Source: Klebsiella phage 6939
Sequence record: OL362271.1
Length of the DNA stretch: 46,039 nucleotides
Reading direction: 5' to 3' (one strand)
Notes under the pieces: generated by a model
Told to the model about the DNA's origin: nothing
Databases searched by the model: none
What the model saw: only the letters and a program-made list of their open reading frames with translations
Translations under genes and position numbers: made by a program
Shown here: piece after piece, positions 3,536-42,000 of the stretch
Numbering within the stretch: the first letter of the stretch is position 1
How the letters are laid out: every line of letters starts with the position of its first letter

Positions 3536-5518
3536 ATGGCTAAGCTAACACGGGTATCTCAACCACTTGTAAAAGGCTACCCAGAGTCAACACTAGATAA
3601 GCAATTTGGTTCATTTGTTACTATTGAGTCTTTCTTAGATAGGGCTAATGGAGTTACTGAAGATGCCCTTGATTTGGCAATTGCGTATTGTCGTGATAAT
3701 GACTGTAAAGTTATTAAGCTAGAGTCTGGTAAGCGCTATGTACTTACAAAGACTCATAAGGTATACAGTAACATCACAATTATTGGTGATAGGGATAACA
3801 GATGGAATCTAGGATCAACAAGTTATGGCCCACCTGTAGGTGAGAGAGCTGATGCAGATGACCCATTTGATAGCTCTTTCATCTGGAAAGGTGCACAAGG
3901 AACTACGTGGTTTGATTGTGATTACCAAGTATCTTTCATTGGTATTGTGTTTGGGGCACCAGACCAGAACTGGGCTGCTACAACTTATGAGCAACTCCTT
4001 GATTATGGTATCTGCATTAAATCGAAGACCAATACCTTTGTATCCAACTGTACATACTACGGGATGAGACAGTTTGTAGATGCTACTGGACAGAATCAGG
4101 TATTCATGGATAACTGTGGTGCAGCTAGGGATGCAGATTACACTATTCGTGACTCACGAGACACTAACTACATTATCAACTGCCATAGTAATCCCGGTAT
4201 CACACGAGTAGCACTAGAGTATGCAAAAGCTGTTATCAACGCAAACAGCGTACTTGTTGACTTAATCAACCATGATGGCACCAGTATCCAAAACTGCACG
4301 ACGTTTGCTAAGCGTCTTGTATGTCGTAATGTTAACAACAGTACTTACTTAGGTCATGTTAACTTGGATATTGGTTTCTTTGACCAAGTTGGTGCTATTG
4401 TCGATAATAACACAGCTACAGCCTCAGCTATCAATGCTAGCAACCTTACAGCTATTGGTGGCTCATCATCTAAGCTCGGTGACCCTGTTGGTTCTGATTC
4501 TGGATTCTTTATCCTGCGTAGACAAGGTGTTACTCAGATTGCATCTGTTAACTTAAGTAATCTTAACCTGACACTTGCAGCATCGCCACTTACTACCCAT
4601 CCTGCGTTCTTGCTTAACTTCCAGATTAGTGAAGCTTATGCAATCAACTTATCTCAAGTATCTTGCCAAGCTACTACAGATAATGGGGCTGGTGTATTCT
4701 GTGCAATCAACGGTAGTGTAATCCAAGCTGCAAATACTTATGTAGCTAATCCAGTAAGGGAGAACTTTATACCTAATGCTGGTTGGGGTTGGCGTCATCC
4801 AATCAACAGCAATCCACGTGGTTGGACTCTCACTAACGTAAGTGTTGAATCACAGGCATCTCGTAGAGTTACTTCATCAGCTACTGGTGGCTACATCGGT
4901 ACTAAGTTCCGTCAGCTACTGGCTGGTAGAACATACATCTTCACAGCAACCTCTATTGGCTCATCAACAGGTGTAGATGTATTAAGTACTAACGATGCAG
5001 GTACAACTACAACTACACACTACGACTGGGTTCGTAGAGGTGGTAAGTACTATGCAACTGGATACATCTCAACAGAAGCTCGTACCCATGAGGTTCGTAT
5101 TAACTGTGGTAACACAGGCTCCTCTGTAGTATTTGAGTATGCTGCATGTGTTCCCGGAAGCATTACAACTTATGGTGACTCATATAATGAACGTCCACCT
5201 AAGTCTACTAGTACAGGTTTATCATCCTATCAAGTAGCTCTTAATGGTGGTGTAGCTCATGAGGTTTATCCTGATTATGCAGGTAAAGCAGGTGCTTATA
5301 CTCTTTATCTGTCATCAGACCAAGGTGCAGCTATCTTCACTCTTGTGAAGGCTACACCAACTACAGCAGCTGTAATCAACTCTGTAGCTACATCTTATGT
5401 AGGTTCAGAGACCTACTCTGTTAGTTGGCCTGATAATAGTAATCCTAGGTTTAATACTTCTGTGTCAGCAACTGTTACCTTAACACTTGTTGGTGCTGCT
5501 TACATCAGTGATATGTAG
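3536..5518 (+). CDS. Tailspike protein (right-end, beta-helix / depolymerase-type)
   Basis: 660 aa, Asn/Ser/Thr/Gly-rich repetitive composition typical of parallel beta-helix tailspikes. Strong RBS AAGGAGAGAAAATG. Sits after the terminase, as in SP6/K1-5-like phages. Confidence 0.7.
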   Translation: MAKLTRVSQPLVKGYPESTLDKQFGSFVTIESFLDRANGVTEDALDLAIAYCRDNDCKVIKLESGKRYVLTKTHKVYSNITIIGDRDNRWNLGSTSYGPPVGERADADDPFDSSFIWKGAQGTTWFDCDYQVSFIGIVFGAPDQNWAATTYEQLLDYGICIKSKTNTFVSNCTYYGMRQFVDATGQNQVFMDNCGAARDADYTIRDSRDTNYIINCHSNPGITRVALEYAKAVINANSVLVDLINHDGTSIQNCTTFAKRLVCRNVNNSTYLGHVNLDIGFFDQVGAIVDNNTATASAINASNLTAIGGSSSKLGDPVGSDSGFFILRRQGVTQIASVNLSNLNLTLAASPLTTHPAFLLNFQISEAYAINLSQVSCQATTDNGAGVFCAINGSVIQAANTYVANPVRENFIPNAGWGWRHPINSNPRGWTLTNVSVESQASRRVTSSATGGYIGTKFRQLLAGRTYIFTATSIGSSTGVDVLSTNDAGTTTTTHYDWVRRGGKYYATGYISTEARTHEVRINCGNTGSSVVFEYAACVPGSITTYGDSYNERPPKSTSTGLSSYQVALNGGVAHEVYPDYAGKAGAYTLYLSSDQGAAIFTLVKATPTTAAVINSVATSYVGSETYSVSWPDNSNPRFNTSVSATVTLTLVGAAYISDM

Positions 5519-5676: not shown

Positions 5677-5851
5677 TTTGTCACCTAAGAAGTTTTATGA
5701 GCTTATGATAGCTCAAGGTAGATTCATGACCATTAAGAATGATTGGCTAGTACTTGAGCCAACTGATGGACTATCAGCTCAAGAGATTATTTATCTAGCT
5801 AGTCATGGTAAAGAGTTGAAGGAATACGTTAAAACACAAGAAGCATCGTAA
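5609..5851 (+). CDS. Hypothetical protein, 80 aa (possibly 3-prime part of a frameshifted gene)
   Basis: ORF of the six-frame track with no clear RBS of its own. Last ORF before the non-coding end region. Confidence 0.3.
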   Translation: MLSLRMFNVTPRSLRGLLALEVSLSPKKFYELMIAQGRFMTIKNDWLVLEPTDGLSAQEIIYLASHGKELKEYVKTQEAS

Positions 5852-6719
5852 ACCTAAGAAGCTTACAGCAAGCTGCATTTAGTATCAGGGGCACTCTGTT
5901 ACTGGATAGCAGGCTACAGTCAACTCAAGTAGTTGGCTAGGTAGCTACCTGTAAGCTCCCTAGGAGTTAGAAATAGGTTGTGCAAGTAGCATAGCTCCTG
6001 CCTGCCTGCGTCTGCGACGTCCCCCATCGGGGTAGCTGACAATAGCTAGCAGGAAGCTTGCAGGTACTATTCAACTAGTACACTAGCACGCTGTAGCGGC
6101 TGGAAGCTGGCTAGGAGCTGCCGTAAGTAACGTAAGCTGTTGATTGTGTACTACTGTACTAGTACGCTTGATGCAGCTACGTGAAATCTGTGCAAGCCAG
6201 CAGGGCTGACAGTCACAACTTGCAAGCACAATCACTTACTGTACTCATGAACTAGTACGCTAACCAGTAGCTCACAGCAGCTGGCTAGGTAGCTTGTATC
6301 AGTTGGCTAGTACATGCAGTAGTGATAGCAGCTTTGTAGGCTGTACTATTGTACTAGTACACGGCTAGTGAGTGGCTTGTAAGTTCTATGTACTAGTAAA
6401 TTAGTACACGGCTGGGTGTATCTGTCTTTTGTTCTACCTACTCACAACTAGCTTATGGGTAGCTTACGATAGACTTACAACCTAGCTTACAGAGGCTTAC
6501 TAGGTAGCTTACAGTAGCTGACTAGGTAACTGCTGATAGCTTACTAGGGAGTTGATGAGAGCTGACTAGGTAGCTTACAGAAGCTTTCTTTATCCGGTCT
6601 ATGAAAGACCGGAAAGAGATAAGTACGATGCTAATTAAGTTACATAATAAGAAGAGGCTGTACTCCACATACACAAGCCACTAAGCCTATAGGCTACCAA
6701 TAACTAACGAGGAACTAAC
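5852..6719. repeat. Non-coding genome-end region with short-repeat arrays (TAGCTTAC, GTACTAGTAC(GCT), GCTGACTAGGTAGCTTACAG)
   Basis: 868 bp with no ORF over 60 aa and dense direct and partially palindromic short repeats. By synteny this is where the terminal repeat and left-end leader of a T7/SP6-like genome sit. Confidence 0.6.
6633..6657 (+). promoter_or_regulatory. Degenerate phage-promoter-like motif (aattaagttacataataagaagagg)
   Basis: Shares AATTAAGTTACA and GAAGAG with the promoter family but has a disturbed -5 to +1 region. Preceded by a GC hairpin at 6593-6613. Confidence 0.3.
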
Positions 6720-6902
6720 ATGAGTGTCACTAGGAACCTAAGAAGAGTCTGCAACTACTGTACGTGGTACAGCAGTATCAACGAAGCTGTGAGTGCTGTT
6801 GTCTACCATAAGAAGCTTACAAGAGGACAGCGCAAGCAATGGTTAAGGCTACCAGCCAGGAAGCGCAAACAACTTGTTATTAAGCATAGAAAGCAATGGT
6901 AA
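6720..6902 (+). CDS. Early hypothetical basic protein, 60 aa
   Basis: First ORF after the end region, with GAGG upstream. Arg/Lys-rich. Confidence 0.4.
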   Translation: MSVTRNLRRVCNYCTWYSSINEAVSAVVYHKKLTRGQRKQWLRLPARKRKQLVIKHRKQW

Positions 6903-11158: not shown

Positions 11159-13843
11159 ATGTATACAGAAGAGCAGCTGATAGAAGAGCAAGTAAAGATT
11201 GAGCTAGATATGTATAACGATGGTTTGTATCGGTTCGATAAGAATAACCAGCGTCATATTGATTCGGGTAATCAGTCAGACACTGACTGGAACCGCCGTC
11301 TTATTAGCACTCTCGTAGAGCCTATGGCTGAAGGTGTAAGAGCTTATAGGGATTACTATAGTAAAGTTAACCCAGAGACGGGTAAACGCCGCACAGGTAG
11401 GCCGTCTAAGGGGTTGTCGTTAATTCGCGGTATGTCAGAGGAGCAAGTAGCTTATATAGCTATCAAAGTAATATTTGATGCTCTGGGTAATCATAAGTTT
11501 GATGCTAATTACCTTGTAACAACTATAGGCAGGAGAATAGAGGATCAATTACGCTTTGATAAGCTGGAGATGTCAGCACCTAAATATATTGAGAAGATTA
11601 AAGAGTCATTAGCTAAACGCAACTCAATAGACTACGACCATCAGCACAAAGTATTAGTATCTTCTGAGAAGAAATTAGCAGACCGAAATGCCGAGAAGGT
11701 GGCAACAGGGGAAGAATCCGAGATTACTATGCAGCGCTGGGTATCTTGGGCTGAGGAAGATTGCAAGCACGTAGGCTCATTGATGGTTAACATCTTTGAG
11801 AAGGCTGTAACCTTTGAGGGTAAGCCTATTATCGCTAAACAGATTACAGGTAGCGGTAAGACTATGAGAGCTTTCATAAGCCCTACTGAGCATGTGTGTA
11901 ACTGGATTGAGCGCTATAAGGAAGCTCTTGGCGGTTTGTCGCCAGCTTTCAGCCCTTGTGTCATCCCTCCGCGCGATTGGGTTAACCCTAACCACGGCGG
12001 CTACTATACCGATAAGCTTTCTGCAACCCTTCCACTGGTTAAGTTGCGTAATAAGCGTCATATGCGCAAGCTGACTAAGAAACAGATGCCGGAAGTGTAT
12101 GCAGCTGTAAACAGTTTGCAGCGTGTACGCTGGGCTATCAGTGAGCGCGTGTTAGCTACTGCAAATGAATTGATGGCTCTTGGCTTGCCGTATGCCTTGC
12201 CGTCAAAGAATCCTAGCGACTGGAAAGAACGCTACCCTTGCCCGGTTCCAGAGCATCTGGCAGACCTGAAAGGTGATGAGCTCAAGCAAGCCCTTAATCC
12301 TCAACAGCTGGAAGATTTTACAGAGTGGAAACAGATTGCACGTCAATCATATGAAGAGGAACAAGAGCGTGTAGCAAGTGTAAGAGAAGTTGTTAGCACT
12401 CTTGGGCAAGCTAACACTTACGTCAAATACCCAGCATTGTACTTTGTATATACTCTTGACTTCCGTGGGCGTGTCTACTGCATGAGCTCACGTGTGTCTC
12501 CACAAGGTGGCGACTTACAGAAAGCTTTAATCAAGTTTGCTGATGGTATGGCACTTGGTACAACTGGTGAATATTGGTTTAAAGTACACGGCGCTAACGA
12601 GTGGGGCTGGGATAAGAAGCCTATGGATGAGCGTGTATCCAATGTAAGCACTGAAGAGTTTAAAACAATGTGCAAGGATATTGCAGATGACCCAGTTACT
12701 TTTAACGACTGGATTCATGCTGATAAACCTTGGCAATTCCTAAACTGGTGCTTTGAGTATGCTGACTTCTTACGTCACGTGGAATCAGGTGGCAACCCAG
12801 AGGATTTTGTAAGCTATATTCCTTGTGCAATGGATGGCAGCTGCTCAGGGATTCAGCACTACTCAGCTATGCTACGTGATAGAGTTGGCGGAGCTGCTGT
12901 AAACCTTACTTACTCATCAGAGGATGGCCCACAGGATATATATGGGGCTGTGTGCAAGATTGTACTTAAGAAGCTCACAGAAATTGCTGAGGGCTATGGT
13001 GTTTATGAGGGCAAACTAGATGCCTCCTTAGCTATTGAGCTGGCTAAAGAGTGGCTGCGACTACAACCAAATCGCAGCTTAACTAAGAAGCCAGTAATGA
13101 CGTTACCGTATGGCAGCACACAGCTAACCTGTCGTGAGCATGTGAGCCAGTGGCTGAAAGATTTACAGAAGGAAGAGAACAAGACAGCCAAGGCAGAATT
13201 CCGAGAGCCTATGAAGGTTCACGCTTTTGGTGACAAGTCATCTTCTATGCCGCTTATCCATGCTGAGACTTTCATGAGCTCACTGGTGTGGTCATCAATC
13301 GGTGAGGTAGTTGTAGCAGCTCGTAGCGGTATGAAGTACATCAAAGCTATTACAACCTCAGTTGCTAAAGCTAACATGCCGCTTGAGTGGACTACTCCAA
13401 CAGGCTTTGTTGTACGCCAAGAGATTTACGAGATGGCTGACCGTCGCATCAAGACGCAGCTTATGGGTACTACAGTCTTTATTAAGCAGGAGAAAACAGA
13501 CAAGATTAACTATCACCGAATGGTTAACAGCTGTGCGCCCAACTTTGTACACTCTATGGATGCAAGCCACTTGGTGAAAGCTACTAATGCTTTTGTAGAT
13601 GCTGGTATCAGTAGCATCGCGGTGATTCATGACAGCTTTGGTACACATGCTGGTAACACTTACATCCTACGTAAGCAGTTGCCAAATTCTATGGTTGACA
13701 TGTACACAGAGCATGATGTTATTAGCAACTTCTTGCAAGAGGTGGAAGCTAAGACGCTGTTAGATTTAAGCCACATCAAGATTCCAGAAGCTGGTAGCTT
13801 GGAGCTTCAGGAAATCAATCAATCAACTTATGCATTTGCTTGA
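11159..13843 (+). CDS. Single-subunit DNA-directed RNA polymerase (T7/SP6-type)
   Basis: 894 aa, with the catalytic motif C HDSFGTHA near the C-terminus and a C-terminal YAFA-type foot. Preceded by TAAGG N5 ATG. Confidence 0.95.
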   Translation: MYTEEQLIEEQVKIELDMYNDGLYRFDKNNQRHIDSGNQSDTDWNRRLISTLVEPMAEGVRAYRDYYSKVNPETGKRRTGRPSKGLSLIRGMSEEQVAYIAIKVIFDALGNHKFDANYLVTTIGRRIEDQLRFDKLEMSAPKYIEKIKESLAKRNSIDYDHQHKVLVSSEKKLADRNAEKVATGEESEITMQRWVSWAEEDCKHVGSLMVNIFEKAVTFEGKPIIAKQITGSGKTMRAFISPTEHVCNWIERYKEALGGLSPAFSPCVIPPRDWVNPNHGGYYTDKLSATLPLVKLRNKRHMRKLTKKQMPEVYAAVNSLQRVRWAISERVLATANELMALGLPYALPSKNPSDWKERYPCPVPEHLADLKGDELKQALNPQQLEDFTEWKQIARQSYEEEQERVASVREVVSTLGQANTYVKYPALYFVYTLDFRGRVYCMSSRVSPQGGDLQKALIKFADGMALGTTGEYWFKVHGANEWGWDKKPMDERVSNVSTEEFKTMCKDIADDPVTFNDWIHADKPWQFLNWCFEYADFLRHVESGGNPEDFVSYIPCAMDGSCSGIQHYSAMLRDRVGGAAVNLTYSSEDGPQDIYGAVCKIVLKKLTEIAEGYGVYEGKLDASLAIELAKEWLRLQPNRSLTKKPVMTLPYGSTQLTCREHVSQWLKDLQKEENKTAKAEFREPMKVHAFGDKSSSMPLIHAETFMSSLVWSSIGEVVVAARSGMKYIKAITTSVAKANMPLEWTTPTGFVVRQEIYEMADRRIKTQLMGTTVFIKQEKTDKINYHRMVNSCAPNFVHSMDASHLVKATNAFVDAGISSIAVIHDSFGTHAGNTYILRKQLPNSMVDMYTEHDVISNFLQEVEAKTLLDLSHIKIPEAGSLELQEINQSTYAFA

Positions 13844-14472: not shown

Positions 14473-14696
14473 TGCAACTGATATTTGTAACTGGGTTAGC
14501 TCACGGCAAGGTACAAACTCATGAAGGTGAGCAGCCGCCGGAAGTAATAAGGGTTGAAACAGACTTAGATGATGGTGAGCTGGGTAAGATGTTCCTTAAG
14601 TACCGTGTAGTTTACTGGAACAAACAAGAAGCTTACTATGTTCCGTTCGCTTGGCGTACTGGGTTTGCACTCAAGAAGCTATTGGAGATGATGTAA
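14472..14696 (+). CDS. Hypothetical protein, 74 aa
   Basis: ATGC overlap with the upstream ORF. Ends directly at the strong terminator. Confidence 0.45.
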   Translation: MQLIFVTGLAHGKVQTHEGEQPPEVIRVETDLDDGELGKMFLKYRVVYWNKQEAYYVPFAWRTGFALKKLLEMM

Positions 14697-14701
14697 CTTA
14701 C

Positions 14702-14733
14702 GGCGGTTCCTACGGGAGCCGCCTTTATTTTAT
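14702..14733 (+). terminator. Intrinsic terminator (ggcggttcc-tac-gggagccgcc + tttattttat), early-region terminator
   Basis: 9-bp GC-rich stem (one G-U pair) plus a 10-nt T-rich tract. Lies between the early/RNAP block and the replication block, like T7 TE. Confidence 0.7.
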
Positions 14734-14786
14734 CCGTCTTGTACTAGTTAAGTAGTACGCTTGTTGAGAATTATTATCATCTAAGT

Positions 14787-14808
14787 TTGTCTCCTATAAG
14801 AGACAAAA
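14787..14808. repeat. Palindromic element TTGTCTC-ctataa-GAGACAA
   Basis: 7-bp inverted arms with a 6-nt spacer, 55 nt after the early terminator. Confidence 0.6.
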
Positions 14809-14835
14809 TCTACTTAGCTCGTGAGAGACAAGAAT

Positions 14836-14886
14836 TCTTTAAAATCTGACCAGCGACGGCTACCAAACTGCTACAGATTTTAAAGA
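14836..14886. promoter_or_regulatory. AT-rich perfect 13-bp inverted repeat (tctttaaaatctg N25 cagattttaaaga), origin-like
   Basis: Read directly from the sequence. Sits between the early terminator and the phage promoter at 14897. Confidence 0.5.
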
Positions 14887-14896
14887 TTTTCTGCGA

Positions 14897-14923
14897 TTAA
14901 TTAAGTGACGCAATAGAAGCAAT
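14897..14923 (+). promoter_or_regulatory. Phage RNAP promoter, SP6-like (attaattaagtgacgcaatagaagcaa)
   Basis: TAAGTGACGCAATAGAAG is closest of all copies to the SP6 consensus TTAGGTGACACTATAGAAG. Confidence 0.6.
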
Positions 14924-15023
14924 CTCAGTAAGTATTAGTAAGTTACCGTAAGCTTACAGAAGCTTAGTAGCTTACATAGCTATAGAGGTTAACCCTCTAT
15001 CCCTCTAGGGATAGGGTAATAAG

Positions 15024-15043
15024 TTGTCTCCTATAAGAGACAA
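15024..15043. repeat. Palindromic element TTGTCTC-ctataa-GAGACAA
   Basis: Identical copy at the end of the second promoter-repeat module. Confidence 0.6.
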
Positions 15044-15085
15044 GATAAGTAGCACAATAGATTAATAAACCTATGGAGCTGTAAG

Positions 15086-15258
15086 ATGCAAACTAGTAAA
15101 GCTGTTGATAAGTTTAGTAAGAAGAAAGCTTATGATGCTGTAGATGAAGAAGTACGTAAGCGTAAGAAGAAAGAGGACACTAAGCGCAAGCATAAGTTCC
15201 GTAGCCGTTTCCTTGAGATTGGCGGTCACAAACTAGGTGATGCCTCTAACTTATATTA
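15086..15258 (+). CDS. Small highly basic protein, 57 aa
   Basis: GGAG N7 ATG start context. Lys/Arg-rich. Too short for the ORF track. Confidence 0.35.
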
Positions 15259-15268
15259 AGGAGACAGT

Positions 15269-17299
15269 ATGTCTGTAGTAATGAATCTGCCATGCCCTGA
15301 GTGTCAGAAGAATGGAGCTGACAAACGTGGTCAGTATCTTATGGTGTTTGAGGATGGCGGTAAGCTTTGTATCCATACACATAACCACGATAGCCGCGAG
15401 CGCTACTATGTAGCTCCTGATGGTAAAGATCCCGTATTCGATCGTGAGATTGATGGCAAGGTACAGTACAACGCAGCTCAGTTTAATCAGCTGGTAGCTG
15501 ATGGCAAGATTAAGGATGAGTTTACTAGGCAGCTAGCATTGTCTGGTATGCGCATGAAGGACAGGTACGAAGTCTTCACAGAAGAAGAGCGTAATCAGAT
15601 TGAGGCTGAGTGGGCTATGGATGTTGCATGGTTCGAGCAGCTAAGCTATCGCTCCTTGGAAGACCGAGCAATTCATGGAGCTATTGCCAAGTTCTATGAC
15701 GTGAGAGTAGGTCATGATGAGCATGGAAAGATTAATAGGCACTACTATCCAGTTCACACTCGTGAAGATATGTCACTAGTAGGTGCTAAAGCTCGTACAC
15801 TTCCAAAGGATTTTGCTTTCGGGCATCTTGGTAGAAGGTTTGGTGATGACTTAGCACTCTTTGGTATGCATACAACTCAGAAGGTGATGGACTCAGGAAC
15901 TTTCCGTAAGGGTAAGATGGGTAAGCTTCTTGTAGTCGGCGGTGAGTGTGATGCTATGGCAGCTCAACAGATGCTGGTTAAATCAATCAATAAGCTGGAT
16001 ACATTACAAGGTATTAAGTCTCTTGATGGGCTTAAGCTTGTACACGTATGGTCACCTACTAAGGGTGAGACTTGCTTGGATGAGATTGTAGCTAACCGTG
16101 AGTATCTTGATGCTTTCGAAGAGATTGTTTGGGGCTTTGACAATGATGATGTAGGCAACAAGCTTAACTTAGCATGTGCCAAGTTGTTCCGTCAGAAGAG
16201 TAAGTTTATTGTATACCCAAGCGGTTGCAAAGATGCTAACCAATGCCTCAAAGAAGGTAGAGATAAAGAGTTTGTTGATGCATGGTGGCAACCTGTGGAG
16301 GCTCGTGTCAAAGGTAAGCTTAAGGCAGCTTCTAGTTATGCTGACATTGCCAAGAAGATTACCAAGAACGGACTAAGTTACTTCATCCCAGAGCTCAACC
16401 CTATTACCTTTGGTGTACGCTTAAGCTACTTGGGTGTATGGGGAGCTGGTACAGGTGTTGGTAAGACAGAGATGACTACTAGTCACATCTGTAAGTTGAT
16501 AGAGCAGGGTAAGCCAGTTGTAGCAATCTACTTAGAGAACAGTCCTGATGAAGTTCTTAAGATGGTTGCCAGTCGCATAGCTAACAAGGACTTTATGAGT
16601 CCACCTTATGACCCAGATGACCCAGATGATGTTTACTCAGCATCTAGGGATTACACATGGCAAGAGTTAAGTGACACAATAGATGCTCTAGTTGCGTCTA
16701 ATCTCCTGTTCATACCAGAGCTTGAAGGGAGCAAGGATGTTACTGTCATTATGGAAGTAATGGAAGATGCGTTAGCTCTTGGTTACCAGTACTTTGTAGT
16801 AGATAACTTGACAGCTTTTGAACACCATGTAGATGGTAAAGTTCAAGTAGGTGTTAATGCTATTGATGAAACTATGAAACGTATGGGTACATTCAAAGAT
16901 GAGCATCCGGTTAATATCATGCTTCTTACTCACCTAACAAGACCAGAGAAGGGACGCATACCGCATGAGTTAGGTGGTGAGGTATTCATTACTGACTTCC
17001 GTGGTGCTGGCTCTATTAGCTTCTGGGCTAATGGTGCATGGGGTATTGAACGAAATACACAAGCAGCATCTATCCAAGACAAATGCACAACACTTATTCG
17101 TAACCTTAAGTCACGTGGTGTTGGTCATAAGGTTGGTAACACTGTAGTCATCAGGAAGATTCTTGACACTGGTGAGTATGAGGTACTGGATGGTGTTCAT
17201 GAGCTACCGCAAGTGGGTCGTGAGAAGAAAGACAAGCAGTCATCAGCTAGTAGGCAGATGGCAGATAATTTTATTGACGAAGCAGATGAGGAATTCTGA
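15269..17299 (+). CDS. DNA primase/helicase (T7 gp4-like)
   Basis: N-terminal Cys4 zinc ribbon (CPECQK...C..H), a TOPRIM region and a C-terminal helicase with Walker A GAGTGVGKT. Acidic C-terminus DEADEEF. Confidence 0.92.
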   Translation: MSVVMNLPCPECQKNGADKRGQYLMVFEDGGKLCIHTHNHDSRERYYVAPDGKDPVFDREIDGKVQYNAAQFNQLVADGKIKDEFTRQLALSGMRMKDRYEVFTEEERNQIEAEWAMDVAWFEQLSYRSLEDRAIHGAIAKFYDVRVGHDEHGKINRHYYPVHTREDMSLVGAKARTLPKDFAFGHLGRRFGDDLALFGMHTTQKVMDSGTFRKGKMGKLLVVGGECDAMAAQQMLVKSINKLDTLQGIKSLDGLKLVHVWSPTKGETCLDEIVANREYLDAFEEIVWGFDNDDVGNKLNLACAKLFRQKSKFIVYPSGCKDANQCLKEGRDKEFVDAWWQPVEARVKGKLKAASSYADIAKKITKNGLSYFIPELNPITFGVRLSYLGVWGAGTGVGKTEMTTSHICKLIEQGKPVVAIYLENSPDEVLKMVASRIANKDFMSPPYDPDDPDDVYSASRDYTWQELSDTIDALVASNLLFIPELEGSKDVTVIMEVMEDALALGYQYFVVDNLTAFEHHVDGKVQVGVNAIDETMKRMGTFKDEHPVNIMLLTHLTRPEKGRIPHELGGEVFITDFRGAGSISFWANGAWGIERNTQAASIQDKCTTLIRNLKSRGVGHKVGNTVVIRKILDTGEYEVLDGVHELPQVGREKKDKQSSASRQMADNFIDEADEEF

Positions 17300-17771: not shown

Positions 17772-17791
17772 TTGTCTCTTATAGGAGACAA
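17772..17791. repeat. Palindromic element TTGTCTC-ttatag-GAGACAA (inverted orientation)
   Basis: Same arms with a reverse-complemented spacer. Overlaps the RBS of the gene at 17793. Confidence 0.6.
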
Positions 17792-19046: not shown

Positions 19047-21629
19047 ATGTTTAAATTCTGGCCTTTCATGTATGAAGATGGCAAGTCGCCACTAAGTGGT
19101 GTTGGTCGCTTCTTGGTAGCTGATATTGAGTCTCGTGGCTTACTTCGAGTTACCAGAGAGGCTAGCGATTTGCATATTATTACTATTGAAGATTATTTCA
19201 CAGGTGAGCAGTTCGTATTTTTCGATCCCTATGAGAAGCGTAAGAATCCTACAGAGCTACCAACTTGGGAAGGTGACCAAGATGGCTATATAGCTGATGG
19301 GGTTAAGATGCTTATGGAGGCTGAAGGTCTTAGCTTCCAGAACGCCGTAGGGTTTGATGGACTTGTACTAGAGAGATGCTTCCCTTGGTTCAAGTTTGAT
19401 TGGTTAGGTTCTCGTAAGCACAAGAAGCATACAGACATCTTCCCATTCAACCACATGGATACAATGGTTGTCAGTCAGCTTACATATCCTGACCGTCCAC
19501 TTGACCATAAGGCTTACAGCTTAGGCCTTGGTAACACAGGTGCGCATAGTATCGCAGCTCATGGTATCCGCATGGGTCGCCATAAGCCAGAGCATGAGGA
19601 TTGGTCAACCCTCACAGAAGATATGATTCACCGTAACCGAGAGGACGTTTCAATCGGTAAGGATTACTTACGGTATCTGATGGAGGGTGATTGGGCTGAC
19701 CAAGTTGCCAGAGGTGCTAACAAGCATACTGGTTTCACAATCCATGAAGCTTACAGAATGGAACAGCAAGTAGCTTTCATGATTGCACGTCAGGAGCAGC
19801 GTGGTTTCCGGTTTGATATGCATCAAGCTTGGGAAGACTACAAAACTATTGATAGTGACATGGAATCTATTAGCGCAGCTGTAGAGCCGTACATACCATT
19901 GAGACTTGTGACTGACCCATACAACTTCCAGAGGCTTAAGCAGCGTTATGATTCTGCTATCAAGAATCTTGACATAAGCCACTGGGGTGTTTGGTTCAAG
20001 CTCAATAAAGATGAGTACCTTAAAGGTATCTTCAATGAGATTCACAGGACTATGAGTATGAAGTCAGAGGACTTTAAACGCATTGGTACTTGTGCAACTC
20101 AATGGAAGCTTACAACAGCTAAGGGTGACTGGAGCAAGGCACTACAGAAAGTATACCCAGAGATGCGTGGCAACATTAATGATACACCAGACCCTCTGGT
20201 AGCTGGGCCATTCACACCCTTAACATTTGAGCAGCTGGGCTTAGGTTCTCTTGATTATGTCAAGGAGAAAGTTCTATGGCCTCGTGGTTGGATTGGAATC
20301 AACTACTCTGATTCAGAAGAGGAATGGATTAACGAGCATGGTGAACCTCGTTACCCTTGGTCTGGTAAGATTGATGATGACTCACTGAAAGCTTGGAAGA
20401 ACAGACAAGAGATACCAGAGTGGGCTGAGAAGATAGTTAACTACTATATCTTACGTTCACGCCGTTCAGTTATTGTGAACAAAGGTGACATTGAGAAGTT
20501 CAATAAGAATGGTGAGTGGCCTAAGCAGAAGAACGGTAAGCATGAATGTCGTGGCTTGCTGGCAGTTGCCTATAACAAAGAGTATGACCTAACAGGTGGA
20601 GAGTACTATGCTAAGTTTAAGGAGTGGCCTACCTCCGATGAAGAAGAGTGGCGTGTACCTGCTGCTGCTTTCTCCATTGGAACGAATACGTTCCGTATGC
20701 GACACAGGTTTGTTGTCAACATACCAGCACGTGGACTATTCCCACTACGCCATCTATTTATCGCTCGCAAAGGCTACAAGATACTTGGATGTGACGGGGC
20801 AGGGCTTGAGCTACGAATGCTTGCACACTTTATGGCAGATGCTGTCTACCAAGAGATTATACTGCATGGCGACATCCATACACACAACCAGCTCAAGGCA
20901 GGATTGCCTACACGAGATATGGCGAAGACTTTCATATACGCATTTCTCTATGGCTCAGGTGTTGGTGGACTCGCTAGATTGGCTGGCATTACCATTGCTG
21001 AAATGGAATCTTGCATATCAAGATTTAAAGCAGAACTTCCAGCACTGGCAACACTGATTGACCGATGTGAGCAAGCTGGTCGTAAGTTTGGTTATCTCCA
21101 AGCTATTGATGGTCGCTGGGGTCGTATCCGTAAGAAGGGTGGCAAGCTTATTATGCACACTGCACTTAACGTGTTGCTTCAGATGACTGGCTCATTAGTC
21201 ATGAAGTATGGTGAGTGCATCGCTGAAGACAATATGATTAAGGAAGGAGTAGCACTTGATGAGTTTGGGTATCCAGCTTTCGTGGCTAACGTACATGATG
21301 AAGTACAAATGGAAGTGCCTGAAGATGAAGTTGATAGCATGGAGTATGAGCTTGCATATACTCTTGAAGGTTTCCCTGATGAACGGAAAGCTATCAAAGC
21401 TGTTTGGGATGTGGAAGAGAAACGCGCACACACAGATGAGCAAGGTAGAAAGTGGAGTGCTCCTTGTAAGCTTAGCGCTGCTGATGGGGTCATTCGTGTT
21501 AGCAGGAGTTATCATCGAGCTGGTCACATACTTATGGACGCTTTCGAAGCTGCTGGGGTAATGTTCAAGATGCGGTGCCCTCTTGCTGGTGAATATAAGG
21601 TGGGTAATAGTTGGGCTGATACACACTAA
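19047..21629 (+). CDS. DNA polymerase (family A, T7 gp5-like) with 3-prime to 5-prime exonuclease domain
   Basis: Exo I motif LVADIES, motif A DGAGLELR, motif B RDMAKTFIYAFLYG and motif C VHDEVQ. Confidence 0.93.
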   Translation: MFKFWPFMYEDGKSPLSGVGRFLVADIESRGLLRVTREASDLHIITIEDYFTGEQFVFFDPYEKRKNPTELPTWEGDQDGYIADGVKMLMEAEGLSFQNAVGFDGLVLERCFPWFKFDWLGSRKHKKHTDIFPFNHMDTMVVSQLTYPDRPLDHKAYSLGLGNTGAHSIAAHGIRMGRHKPEHEDWSTLTEDMIHRNREDVSIGKDYLRYLMEGDWADQVARGANKHTGFTIHEAYRMEQQVAFMIARQEQRGFRFDMHQAWEDYKTIDSDMESISAAVEPYIPLRLVTDPYNFQRLKQRYDSAIKNLDISHWGVWFKLNKDEYLKGIFNEIHRTMSMKSEDFKRIGTCATQWKLTTAKGDWSKALQKVYPEMRGNINDTPDPLVAGPFTPLTFEQLGLGSLDYVKEKVLWPRGWIGINYSDSEEEWINEHGEPRYPWSGKIDDDSLKAWKNRQEIPEWAEKIVNYYILRSRRSVIVNKGDIEKFNKNGEWPKQKNGKHECRGLLAVAYNKEYDLTGGEYYAKFKEWPTSDEEEWRVPAAAFSIGTNTFRMRHRFVVNIPARGLFPLRHLFIARKGYKILGCDGAGLELRMLAHFMADAVYQEIILHGDIHTHNQLKAGLPTRDMAKTFIYAFLYGSGVGGLARLAGITIAEMESCISRFKAELPALATLIDRCEQAGRKFGYLQAIDGRWGRIRKKGGKLIMHTALNVLLQMTGSLVMKYGECIAEDNMIKEGVALDEFGYPAFVANVHDEVQMEVPEDEVDSMEYELAYTLEGFPDERKAIKAVWDVEEKRAHTDEQGRKWSAPCKLSAADGVIRVSRSYHRAGHILMDAFEAAGVMFKMRCPLAGEYKVGNSWADTH

Positions 21630-22905: not shown

Positions 22906-22925
22906 TTGTCTCCTATAAGAGACAA
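22906..22925. repeat. Palindromic element TTGTCTC-ctataa-GAGACAA
   Basis: Between the SSB stop and the promoter at 22927. Confidence 0.6.
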
Positions 22926-39002: not shown

Positions 39003-42000
39003 ATGCCTCAACAAGAACAAGTACAACAGCCCGGTTTTGGTGAGCTGTTTAGTACTGCTGCAAAGCAGAATTGGATATTCAGCGCTAAGCAAAACTCAGA
39101 AGACTTGATGACTTATGGTACGCCTGTTGAGGGTTATAAGCCTACTTATGATGAGGTAAATAAACTCAAGACAGACTTTAAGCTCACGGATGAGCAATCT
39201 GCAATCTTATCAGGTTCATTATCACCTGAAGAATTACAGTACCGGGCACAAGTTTACAAAGATAAGAATGATGGACAGAAGACACTGGAAGCTGCTGGAT
39301 GGAAGGGAACAGCTGCTGAGATGCTTAGCTATGCTGCTGACCCAACTATGCTACCTACATTTGCTATCAAGACACCTTATGTAGTTGGTAGGGCTCTTGG
39401 TGCTGTAGGCATCCAGATGTCGAAGACAGCAGTTACTGGAGCCATAGAGCGTGCTGTAGGTGCTAGTATTGTAGGTGGTGCTACATCACTTGGACAAGAA
39501 GCAGCCTTAAGCATTTATGACCCAGATCGTGATGTTAATGATGTAGTAATTGCGGGTTTGTCAGGTATGGTAGGTGCAGCAGCTTTCTCAAGCCTTGTCG
39601 ATGGTGGCGCTGCAATAGCTGGTAAGGCACTGGCTAAACGTGCTTTAGGTAGAGAGATGCTGGATGTTGTTGAGAGTACTGATTGGAATGCACATCTTGA
39701 TTTAGTCAATAGTGCTGACCATAACCTCAATCAAGCTATTAGTGGTCGCTTGCAATCATCTAGCTACTCTAAGTACTTCAAAGGTCTCGAAGGTGAGATA
39801 CCTGATGCAGTTGCACGTAAACGTGTTCTTACTGAAGGTAATGCAATCAATAAGATGATTGATGACCTGCTACCTACAGCTGAAGCTCGTATGTCTCGTG
39901 GTGACAGATTAAGCCTTGAGGCTAATATTAAATCTGGCAATCATGAAATGGAGCTGCTGGCTCGTAGAATCAATGAGGTTGAATCTACAATCCCTACTGG
40001 TTCTGGTAAAGCTTTATCAGCTGCCCGTCAATCTCGTAGCTCTGAGCTTGCTGATTTACGAAATAAGCTAGAGCAGCAACGAGTGGCTGTAGAGGAATTA
40101 AGAACCACAATAGAACCACACGCAACTGGGATACATGCACAAGCTGTATCAGACATCAGCAGATTGAAGAGTGGCATAATCCCAGACCACTTAAAGGAGA
40201 AATACCTTGACCTTATTACTCCAGAAGACGCAGCGCCAGCGTATGTTGAGGCAAAGGGTAATTTACCTGCCAAAGAGGAACCACAGAAAGTATTACCAGA
40301 TGAGGCAGCGCGTGTTGAGGAAGAGACCTTGTCTCCTACAGGAGACAAAACAGATACCTCTATTGGTGCAGCAGAGAAGAAGGGAGCTATCATTTTCCCT
40401 GACACAGAGGGTGACCTTATCAATAGCACTATGGCTACTTCTCTTGCTGAGATGGCCAAATTAGGTGAAAAGATACCTGTAACAAAGGCTGCTGGTACTA
40501 CTTCAATCTATGGTCGAGTTATGGCTAAGATGAAAGATAACTCGCTACGAGGCATTGGGGCTCTTGTCTTCAATGACCCGCATGGTGCTAAGACAGGGAT
40601 TCAATCAGCTGTAGCATTTGCTGATACTATGAGAACACGAGTTATGCCAAAGGCCGTGTTCATTGATGAAGCAGCCCGTAATGAATACATCAAAGCAGCT
40701 GGTATCAATCCACTCCTTCAAGCTGGTAAAGCTAATGATGCTATTATCTCTTTCAATAGAGAGGTTGCTCTTAAGATTAATAGTCTTACAGATACCAAGA
40801 TAGCTGCTGGTGATGATGCAATCACAAGAGCTGCCAAGGCACGAGCTGAGGCTTACCGTGAGTCTCTGGATATGATGAAGCGGTATGGAGTCCGTGGCTT
40901 TGAGGAAGTTGATGAGCGAGCATCTTATCAACCTGTAATCTTTGGTCGTAACGATATTACATCAGCCCTTGACACTTATGGTGAGGATGCAGTTAAGGAA
41001 GTTCTTGTACGTGGTTATATGGGTGGTAAAATCCCACTAAGCCAGAAGTCAGCTATGGTGGTTGCCGATGCGATGATGGATAGATTCTATAGACGCACAA
41101 GCTCCATTGTACAGTCATCAAGTAAGCCATCTATTAGTAGCCGTGTAGCTGCTGTTCGTGATGAGCTTATTGCCAATGGTGTTCCAGAGAAAGAGATTCA
41201 GACAGTTATCAACATGCTTGGTGATAAGTCACTTGATGAGAACATCTCAGCACGTGCTATGAAGTCACTTCATCCAGATATTACTTCTGAGACTGTTGAT
41301 GGTTTGAGATTCGTTGACCTTATGGATACTTCAATTGCAAGTGTAGATAAGTATGTTCGTGATGCATCTGCTCAGTCTGCCTTTGCTCGTAATGGATTAC
41401 GTTCACGTCGTCAAGTAGAAGACACCATCACAGAAGCATTCAAGCAACACAGGCAAGAGCTTTCTGATTTAACTAATCAGTACAATGATGCTGTTGCTCG
41501 TAAAGCTAAAGTGCGTGAAGGTGTTGAAACACCAGAGCTTGATAAGATTATTAAGGACTATGAGCGACTTGGTAACATTGGCAAATATCGTAAGTTCTTG
41601 GATGACTTTGAGCAGGATTACTTTGATGGTGTTAAGGTAGCTTTTGGTGAACCTATCGAAGATGCCAACTCATTAACCACTGTTGGTAGTGCAATTGGTA
41701 AGATGGTTAACATGACAATGCTTGGGTTCTCTGGTACTGCTCAGGTAGCTGACTTAGGTGTTACAGTAGCTCGCTCTGGTTTAGGTGCAAGCTTACGTAA
41801 TCTACCAACAACTGTTTATCATGGTGTACGTTCACTTCTACCATCGCAGAAGTACTTCATTGGTAATAATGAGTTGAGTAATCTGGCGGAGGTTATGGGT
41901 ACTATTTCTCACCAAGATTATCTGTTTGGTCATAAGATGATGACTGGTGCTGAGTATGGTGATGCAGTTATCGGTCACGTCTCAACAGCTGACAAGGTAT

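Follow-up and report, generated by a model that had tools for sequence, protein, structure and literature searches.

The non-coding DNA between the RNA polymerase (RNAP) gene block and the primase gene of Klebsiella phage 6939 raises the question of whether it is the primary replication origin of the phage, and if so which of its elements would carry that role. The DNA concerned (OL362271.1; 46,039 nucleotides, below called the window, with all coordinates counted from its first letter) is an Autographiviridae genome of 43% G+C, with about 85% identity to KL01, a Klebsiella phage, and to phage Reminis. The original prediction was of a promoter, repeat and palindrome module with exactly the composition of the T7 primary origin, in which a perfect AT-rich inverted repeat would serve as the DNA-unwinding element. 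The relatives of the phage bear out a conserved module of this kind at 14697-15085, and with a little more confidence than doubt we read it as the early-to-middle control region of a phage of the SP6/Gajwadongvirus type, with two tandem promoters for the phage RNAP (P1 and P2), a probable RNA hairpin and a possible origin. It is a variant of the known T7-type control region, and by analogy with T7 origin activity is plausible. If the region is an origin, the inverted repeat would not be the relevant element; the promoters would. For T7 the origins are mapped, and as far as we could find none is reported for the large SP6-like/Gajwadongvirus-like group, which includes many Klebsiella, Salmonella and Pectobacterium phages for therapy and biocontrol. 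The two promoters, rather than the inverted repeat, offer a concrete conserved origin candidate for this group.

Downstream of the RNAP gene (11159-13843) there are four small open reading frames (ORFs), a terminator, the 389-bp gap, a basic ORF of 57 amino acids (aa), the primase-helicase gene and the DNA polymerase gene. Both promoters are on the + strand, P1 (AATTAAGTGACGCAATAGAAG) at 14899-14919 and P2 (AGATAAGTAGCACAATAGATT) at 15043-15063, with inferred starts at G 14916 and G 15060. With a position weight matrix (PWM) built from eight consensus promoters they score 24.3 and 21.2, ranking 9 and 10 among the + strand matches, whereas no match on the opposite strand scores above 5.8. P1 is the promoter that had been placed at 14897, while P2 had been missed. 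The window consensus, AWTAAAGTTACACAATAGA, of which there are about ten good + strand copies, is one that we take from our own comparison to be SP6-like. P1 was found in all of the relatives discussed below and the position of P2 is kept in all of them.

In T7, replication starts at phi1.1A and phi1.1B, with phiOR and phi6.5 as secondary origins, and the T7 promoter is the essential element (PMC8373140). The T7 record has phi1.1A at 5848 and phi1.1B at 5923, between gene 1 (end 5822) and gene 1.1 (6007). In the window, likewise, the first strong phage promoters to follow the RNAP gene are a rightward tandem pair for the phage RNAP, with a small gene-1.1-type ORF directly after them; both the location and the rightward promoters for its own RNAP that would be looked for in a T7-type origin are thus present. 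The ORF that stands in the place of T7 gene 1.1 is the 57-aa ORF (15086-15259, + strand, 18 K/R), with its ATG at 15086 and a GGAG ribosome-binding site at 15075-15078. When its translation starts at the ATG at 6340, the equivalent SP6 protein, gp9, shows clear homology to T7 gp1.1 (MRNFEK...TRDR..KR..WE, E 1.5e-7), and this homology together with the shared order of elements makes the P1/P2 region the positional counterpart of phi1.1A/phi1.1B. As the gene order matches that around phi1.1A/phi1.1B, the region would be the most likely place for transcription-primed initiation of replication. There are also differences from T7. The promoters are 144 nt apart in the window and 75 nt apart in T7, a strong terminator of the host type, together with four small ORFs, stands between P1 of the window and the RNAP gene, and the repeats, CU/AG hairpins and palindrome between the promoters of the window are absent from T7.

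SP6 shares the order of the window in full. Between SP6 gene 8 (RNAP) and gene 9 we find a terminator, a palindrome, a promoter (6118), purine-rich short repeats, a CU-rich segment, a second palindrome, a second promoter (6287), the gp1.1 homologue and then the primase, but the sequences of the promoter, the repeat unit (TAGGTAA) and the palindrome (GTCYAACRYGTTGGAC) differ from those of the window, there is no AT-rich inverted repeat, and the leader is 70% purine as against 56%. The same order, namely terminator, palindrome(s), promoter, tandem 9-10-nt repeats, CU/AG hairpin, palindrome, promoter, small basic ORF and primase, recurs in Gajwadongvirus PP99, MR4 and ECBP5, in phages JSF38, VL73, RCIP0089, vB_Kp_Z1 and Roth32, and in IMG/VR loci within our series L008-L025, whose primases are 45-82% identical to that of the window. 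(In our locus numbering KL01 is L001, Reminis L002, PP99 L005, VL73 L028, SP6 L030, RCIP0089 L174, vB_Kp_Z1 L175 and Roth32 L176; L008-L025 include the IMG/VR loci.) Promoter, repeat unit and palindrome are each lineage-specific in sequence. Judged on these sequences, the tandem promoters, repeat leader, CU/AG hairpin and flanking palindromes are universal in the SP6-like/Gajwadongvirus-like group and the inverted repeat is clade-specific. Two exact-pattern scans of IMG/VR for further relatives, with ACGGCTACCAAACT and TCAGAWTTTAAAGTTTTC, gave matches that were nearly all due to chance.

Across the whole gap the window, KL01 and Reminis have 92% identity. For a neutral yardstick we used the four-fold degenerate sites of the adjacent primase gene, which have 59-68% pairwise identity, and we took invariance as the share of columns identical in these three genomes. 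P2 is invariant in 100% of its columns, the palindromes in 96-100%, the leader repeats in 96%, the CU/AG hairpins in 94% and the terminator in 91%. The figures are 81-94% for the arms of the inverted repeat, 68% for its spacer, 67% for the P1 core and 33% for P1 positions -26 to -18. Conservation thus switches sharply within a few bases, an argument for selection and against a recent transfer that brought in the entire block.

The 144 nt between the starts of P1 and P2 contain no ATG or GTG. The P1 leader proper (14917-14985, + strand) has no ORF and consists of GTAAGT/GTAAGCTTAC-type short repeats (repeat families D1, D5 and I2), among them the gtaagt/gtaagcttac repeats reported earlier at 14923-14980. 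It runs into two overlapping CU/AG hairpins predicted on the same strand, hairpin 1 at 14982-15000 (ATAGAGG-TTAAC-CCTCTAT) and hairpin 2 at 14995-15016 (CUCUAUCCC-UCUA-GGGAUAGGG); the CT-rich palindromic block described here is real, although it starts at 14993 and not at 14991. The predicted fold of the P1 leader RNA has an energy of -51.7 kcal/mol (z -3.9). Reminis has changes to CU/AG hairpin 1 in the loop alone, and equivalent hairpins with changed arms are present in PP99, VL73 and the loci L016, L008 and L009.

With regard to the inverted repeat (14833-14889, + strand), the perfect 13-nt arms tctttaaaatctg (14836-14848) and cagattttaaaga (14874-14886) with their 25-nt spacer are as originally described, and the arms extend to 16 nt (14833-14848 and 14874-14889) at 94% complementarity. 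It is the only perfect inverted repeat of at least 13 nt with a spacer of up to 40 nt in the 46-kb window, and such a repeat arose in 7 of 100 simulated Markov-1 genomes (about 0.07 per genome). When folded as a single sequence the RNA is predicted to form 4+13+4 pairs at -18.9 kcal/mol (z -5.4), and a comparable hairpin is predicted in 10 of 11 relatives, with z from -2.0 to -5.9. Where the sequence varies, a hairpin is kept chiefly on the + strand, by way of G·U pairs: two substitutions in Reminis give G·U pairs, MR4 and JSF38 have one A-U to U-A double change, and in PP99 and L010 CAGAUUUU pairs with AAAGUUUG by way of two G·U pairs. The + strand fold is more stable than that of the - strand by 3.9-10.4 kcal/mol in 9 of the 11 sequences, the genomic background for this strand bias having a mean of -1.5 to -1.9 kcal/mol (sd, standard deviation, 4). 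For an RNase III-type site one would look for an imperfect RNA hairpin that has some 20 bp, is on the transcribed strand and is kept in relatives, and the predicted folds show these features. An Rfam search with E up to 1 gave only two sub-threshold matches, both on the terminator, and no family for the inverted repeat. The inverted repeat is probably a hairpin in the + strand RNA, which would serve the processing of transcripts from upstream or protect their 3' ends, and probably not a DNA-unwinding element.

We propose that early transcripts made by the host RNAP would end at the terminator at 14702-14733, and that transcripts which read through it, or which the phage RNAP starts further upstream, would then meet the A/U-rich hairpin of about 21 bp. 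This hairpin may act on the RNA as a 3'-end processing or protection signal, its closest analogue being the T7 RNase III site R1.1. P1, starting at 14916, would make a structured ORF-less leader of 144 nt, with its GTAAGCT-type repeats, CU/AG hairpins and TTGTCTC palindrome, that runs into P2 at 15060, and both promoters would express the gene-1.1-like basic protein and the primase-helicase. Site R1.1 is reportedly inside the T7 origin region. The window hairpin resembles it in being A/U-rich, imperfect, about 20 bp long, on the transcribed strand and beside tandem promoters, but it is upstream of P1 and downstream of the terminator whereas R1.1 is downstream of the second promoter, and it is predicted from sequence and absent from the SP6-type relatives.

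Several observations weigh against this reading, some of them touching the origin and others the hairpin. The first 70 nt after P2 are 67% AT and those after P1 64%, as against 57% for the genome, a less marked enrichment than in the block downstream of phi1.1B, which has 72% AT over 5924-6006 and a 60-bp maximum of 78%, where the local level in T7 is about 56%. The 57-aa protein is only weakly similar to the gp1.1 family (E about 1e-3 in a 14-sequence set). Cumulative GC and AT skews on the rotated genome are monotonic, that of GC rising, with no inflection near 14.9 kb, and the GC skew is uninformative. The UAB_Phi78 paper (PMC4837284) relays, at second hand from Dobbins et al. 2004, a bidirectional SP6 origin at the DNA polymerase gene. 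As to the hairpin, the repeat region of VL73 does not fold, and no consensus came out of RNAalifold on a MAFFT alignment of the 11 repeat regions, owing to a pairing register that moves from clade to clade. A strand bias of at least 4 kcal/mol occurs in about 30% of random windows, and the sequences sampled for strand asymmetry are related, amounting to three or four lineages, so that the evidence for a strand-specific hairpin is suggestive and not decisive. The hairpin is also 3' of a strong terminator, which puts in doubt the share of RNA that would contain it. Finally, the invariance of the leader is greater than a simple RNA structure would need.

The view that the inverted repeat is a DNA-unwinding element, working with the promoter at 14897 in a primary origin, is very improbable, although the position is equivalent to that of the T7 primary origin, and the repeat is the only one of its kind in the window and is kept within the Gajwadongvirus-like clade. 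The description of the repeat as almost pure A/T suits its arms (10/13, 77% AT), but the 25-nt spacer is 44% AT (56% GC) and the repeat as a whole 61%. The most AT-rich 60 bp of the gap, starting at 14878 with 71.7% AT and in the top 0.56% of windows, do cover the right arm and P1. However an unwinding element should show as a contiguous run of exceptionally low duplex stability, and nearest-neighbour calculations do not single out the repeat. The minima within the gap start at 14768 and 15010 (z about 2.7), neither of them on the repeat, and 97-161 windows elsewhere in the genome are less stable than these. The repeat spans -83 to -27 relative to the P1 start, and as it ends 27 nt 5' of that start it is upstream of the promoter, unlike the AT-rich block of T7, which is downstream. 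The changes in its variants are made up for by G·U pairing on just one of the strands, and SP6, L017, L014 and L025 keep the rest of the architecture with no inverted repeat at all. The likeness to the T7 primary origin thus stands for position and tandem promoters, and is unsupported for the repeat as an AT-rich unwinding element. Another possibility is that P1 and its leader are an expression cassette, a promoter with a stabilising 5' untranslated region that sequesters the Shine-Dalgarno sequence, with the cargo gene absent and no special role in replication. P1 plus leader can indeed serve as an ordinary expression cassette, since in VL73, L009, L017 and L014 there is an ORF between the promoters whose Shine-Dalgarno sequence is the purine arm of the CU/AG hairpin; a paralogous leader after the terminase gene of the window precedes a normally translated 91-aa gene, and SP6 has a third promoter at 12542 with a leader of similar kind. 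An empty cassette should decay, however, and with neutral sites at 59-68% identity the leader, though it has no ORF, is still invariant in 94-96% of its columns; the ORF-less form is moreover common to the window, KL01, Reminis, PP99, MR4 and SP6. We regard the empty cassette as distinctly unlikely.

It is also possible, but unlikely, that the region works as DNA, with the palindromes, inverted repeat and GTAAGCT repeats binding phage or host proteins to form a nucleoprotein platform that regulates or insulates P1 and P2 or marks an iteron-like origin. The palindrome sequence varies by lineage while the sites are syntenic, and both orientations are found among the copies (that at 17772 in the window and that at 493 in SP6 are inverted), the asymmetric centre being retained. 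The L008 palindrome pairs only in its 5-bp outer half-sites, TTGTC/GACAA, and would make a poor RNA hairpin. We found no recurring palindrome family in the T7 genome. The almost complete invariance of the leader at the nucleotide level, the conserved position of a Fur-box-like element and the roughly 18-fold enrichment of the short repeats TAGCTTAC/GTAAGCTA in three non-coding blocks (which make up 3.2% of the genome and hold 8 of the 14 copies) would also fit such a platform. Against it, no candidate for a DNA-binding protein emerged, the neighbouring small ORFs and the 57-aa ORF matching no PHROGs or Pfam family. Short lineage-specific repeats are present, as they would be in an iteron array, but their number varies from 3 to about 10 copies in near-identical Klebsiella phages, their period is 9 nt or 10 nt depending on the lineage, and no initiator-like protein was found among the neighbouring ORFs. 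Several palindromes are immediately 5' of a ribosome-binding site, as an RNA element would be, and the G·U compensation in the inverted repeat is strand-specific. On balance we keep to the control region with tandem promoters and an RNA hairpin. A broader and improbable extension is that SP6/Gajwadongvirus-type phages, unlike T7, have sequence-specific origin or control sites made of a lineage-specific palindrome and an array of 9-10-nt repeats, read by a co-evolving factor of the phage itself, for which the gene-1.1-like basic protein, fast-evolving and encoded just downstream, would be a candidate, and marking their counterparts of phiOL, phi1.1A/B and phiOR. As the sole reader of the palindromes gp1.1 was rejected, because T7 has gp1.1 and yet no recurring palindrome family.

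In the case of the palindrome TTGTCTCCTATAAGAGACAA, called here the TTGTCTC palindrome, both of the copies described earlier are present, copy 1 at 14787-14806, upstream of P1 and fully invariant in KL01 and Reminis, and copy 2 at 15024-15043, which abuts P2. They are two of six sites in the window (6946, 14787, 15024, 17772, 22906 and 40329), where 0.01 would be expected by chance. An isolated half-site, AGAGACAAGA, is on the + strand at 14824-14833 (direct-repeat family D4), and is kept in KL01 and nearly so in Reminis. At the position of copy 1, PP99, SP6 and other lineages carry a different palindrome, the sequences among lineages being TTGTCTCCTATAAGAGACAA, GTCTAGTAYACTAGAC, GTCYAACRYGTTGGAC, TTGTCTCACAGTGTGAGACA, GGTTTCACAnGTGAAACC and GTCTGACAGTGTCAGAC. 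PP99 has its own sites at 595, 3875, 7990, 8282, 11626, 16282 and 40850, and SP6 at 493, 6093, 6264, 7071, 8547, 9383, 14255, 17752 and 30569. These lineage-specific palindromes of 16-20 bp are largely syntenic and mostly intergenic, and several are just 5' of a phage promoter or ribosome-binding site; a palindrome followed by a promoter is found elsewhere at 22906/22927 in the window, 8282/8305 in PP99 and 6264/6287 in SP6. The short palindromes on either side of the leader probably serve as recognition sites of a phage-specific factor. As a family the lineage-specific palindromes could be DNA sites for a co-evolving protein, or alternatively, with several directly 5' of a ribosome-binding site, they could be RNA hairpins that stand in for the RNase III sites of T7. 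Literature searches turned up no description of the palindrome sequences or of the other elements here, and the SP6 genome papers (Dobbins 2004, Scholl 2004) may yet contain a description.

Two further conserved palindromes, both missed originally, are between the terminator and copy 1. That at 14741-14758 (GTACTA-GTTAAG-TAGTAC) belongs to a GTACTA-N6-TAGTAC family with five copies in the window (6064, 6148, 6343, 6390 and 14741) and four in PP99 (161, 7939, 8017 and 16305); the arms are identical in the two lineages, and the family is common to the left-end non-coding block and the gap after the RNAP gene. That at 14765-14779 is a 7-1-7 palindrome, TGAGAAT-T-ATTATCA, one mismatch off TGATAATnATTATCA, which we take to be the Fur-box consensus, and it is the sole such match in the window. 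Perfect Fur-box-like versions are at the syntenic place in VL73 (about 666-680) and Roth32 (about 153-167). A scan for sigma-70 promoters found none within the gap, and the Fur-box-like palindrome therefore overlaps no recognisable host promoter. The early terminator itself, on the + strand at 14702-14733 as originally placed, was recovered by a terminator scan as a Rho-independent terminator with a 9-bp G+C-rich stem (GGCGGTTCC-TACG-GGAGCCGCC) and a T-run (TTTATTTTAT), and it is at the equivalent place in PP99, MR4, L008, L010, L016 and SP6. The lineage-specific palindromes, the Fur-box-like site and the variable-number tandem repeats described next are conserved non-coding elements that genome engineering of these phages would need to preserve.

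The leader repeat units differ among lineages (GTAAGCTA, TAGGTAA, AAGAGCGTT and TATAGAGAG), and they repeat every 9 nt in L017 and L024 and every 10 nt in the others. This difference in period led us to reject, as a general explanation, that the TAAG repeats are in helical phase or supply stop codons in all three frames. An R-loop-prone purine-rich leader holds for SP6, L017, L014 and L025 (70-73% purine) but not for the window (56%), and the repeats as primase sites were likewise set aside, the SP6 primase site (GCA) being absent from the SP6 unit. The 10-nt leader repeat TAGTAAGCTA is a variable-number tandem repeat among Klebsiella or metagenomic phages that are otherwise nearly identical, with about 10 copies in RCIP0089 (325-445) and in Roth32 (325-445), 3 in vB_Kp_Z1 (405-445) and 6 in L016 (2460-2545). 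The ORFs inserted between P1 and P2 are at 891-1106 in VL73, about 2370-2790 in L009, about 2640 in L017 and about 2563 in L014, and the interval is thus a hotspot for gene insertion that is empty in the window.

Related modules are present elsewhere in the window. It is circularly permuted, starting inside the terminase large-subunit gene, and the natural ends are in the non-coding block at about 5852-6720. In the T7 record phiOL is at 405 and phiOR at 39229, after gene 19 (terminase large subunit). The window has, directly after its own terminase large-subunit gene, a paralogous module on the + strand (1873-2059) with 77% identity to 14899-15088 over promoter and leader. It contains a consensus promoter (1877), TAAG repeats with a 10-nt period, CU/AG hairpins and an AT-rich tract, followed by the 91-aa ORF, and it resembles phiOR in its place and in having the least stable DNA of the window behind it. 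Among 100-bp duplexes the lowest stability in the window is at about 1957-2060, which is the genome minimum for windows of 40-100 bp and lies 70-170 nt downstream of the promoter at 1877; the composition of a T7-type origin, a promoter and then AT-rich DNA, fits 1877/1957-2060 better than it does the P1/P2 gap. At the left end, the block at 5852-6720 has an array of TAGCTTAC (6460-6580), which is the reverse complement of the leader repeat GTAAGCTA, then a hairpin and then a weak phage promoter at 6637, resembling phiOL in being a weaker promoter in the left-end non-coding region. Unlike phiOL and phiOR, the three putative sites of the window share the lineage-specific short repeat GTAAGCTA/TAGCTTAC.

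Of the genes beyond the gap, the primase-helicase is at 15269-17299 and the DNA polymerase at 19047-21629. Inside the primase-helicase gene there is a strong phage promoter (16665-16685, PWM 29.0) that is conserved in KL01 and Reminis and is reminiscent of T7 phi4c inside gene 4; at the corresponding place in PP99 (10055) there is a match to the PP99 promoter consensus with 3 mismatches. KL01 (4525-4785) and Reminis (3733-3999) have an extra ORF of about 87 aa between a 74-aa ORF and the terminator, which the window lacks (site 14696-14702). In the Reminis record the primase-helicase (Rem33) is wrongly labelled 'DNA-directed RNA polymerase'. The hexamers GTAAGC (49 found, 12 expected) and GCTTAC (39 found, 9 expected) are about four-fold over-represented throughout the genome, including coding DNA.

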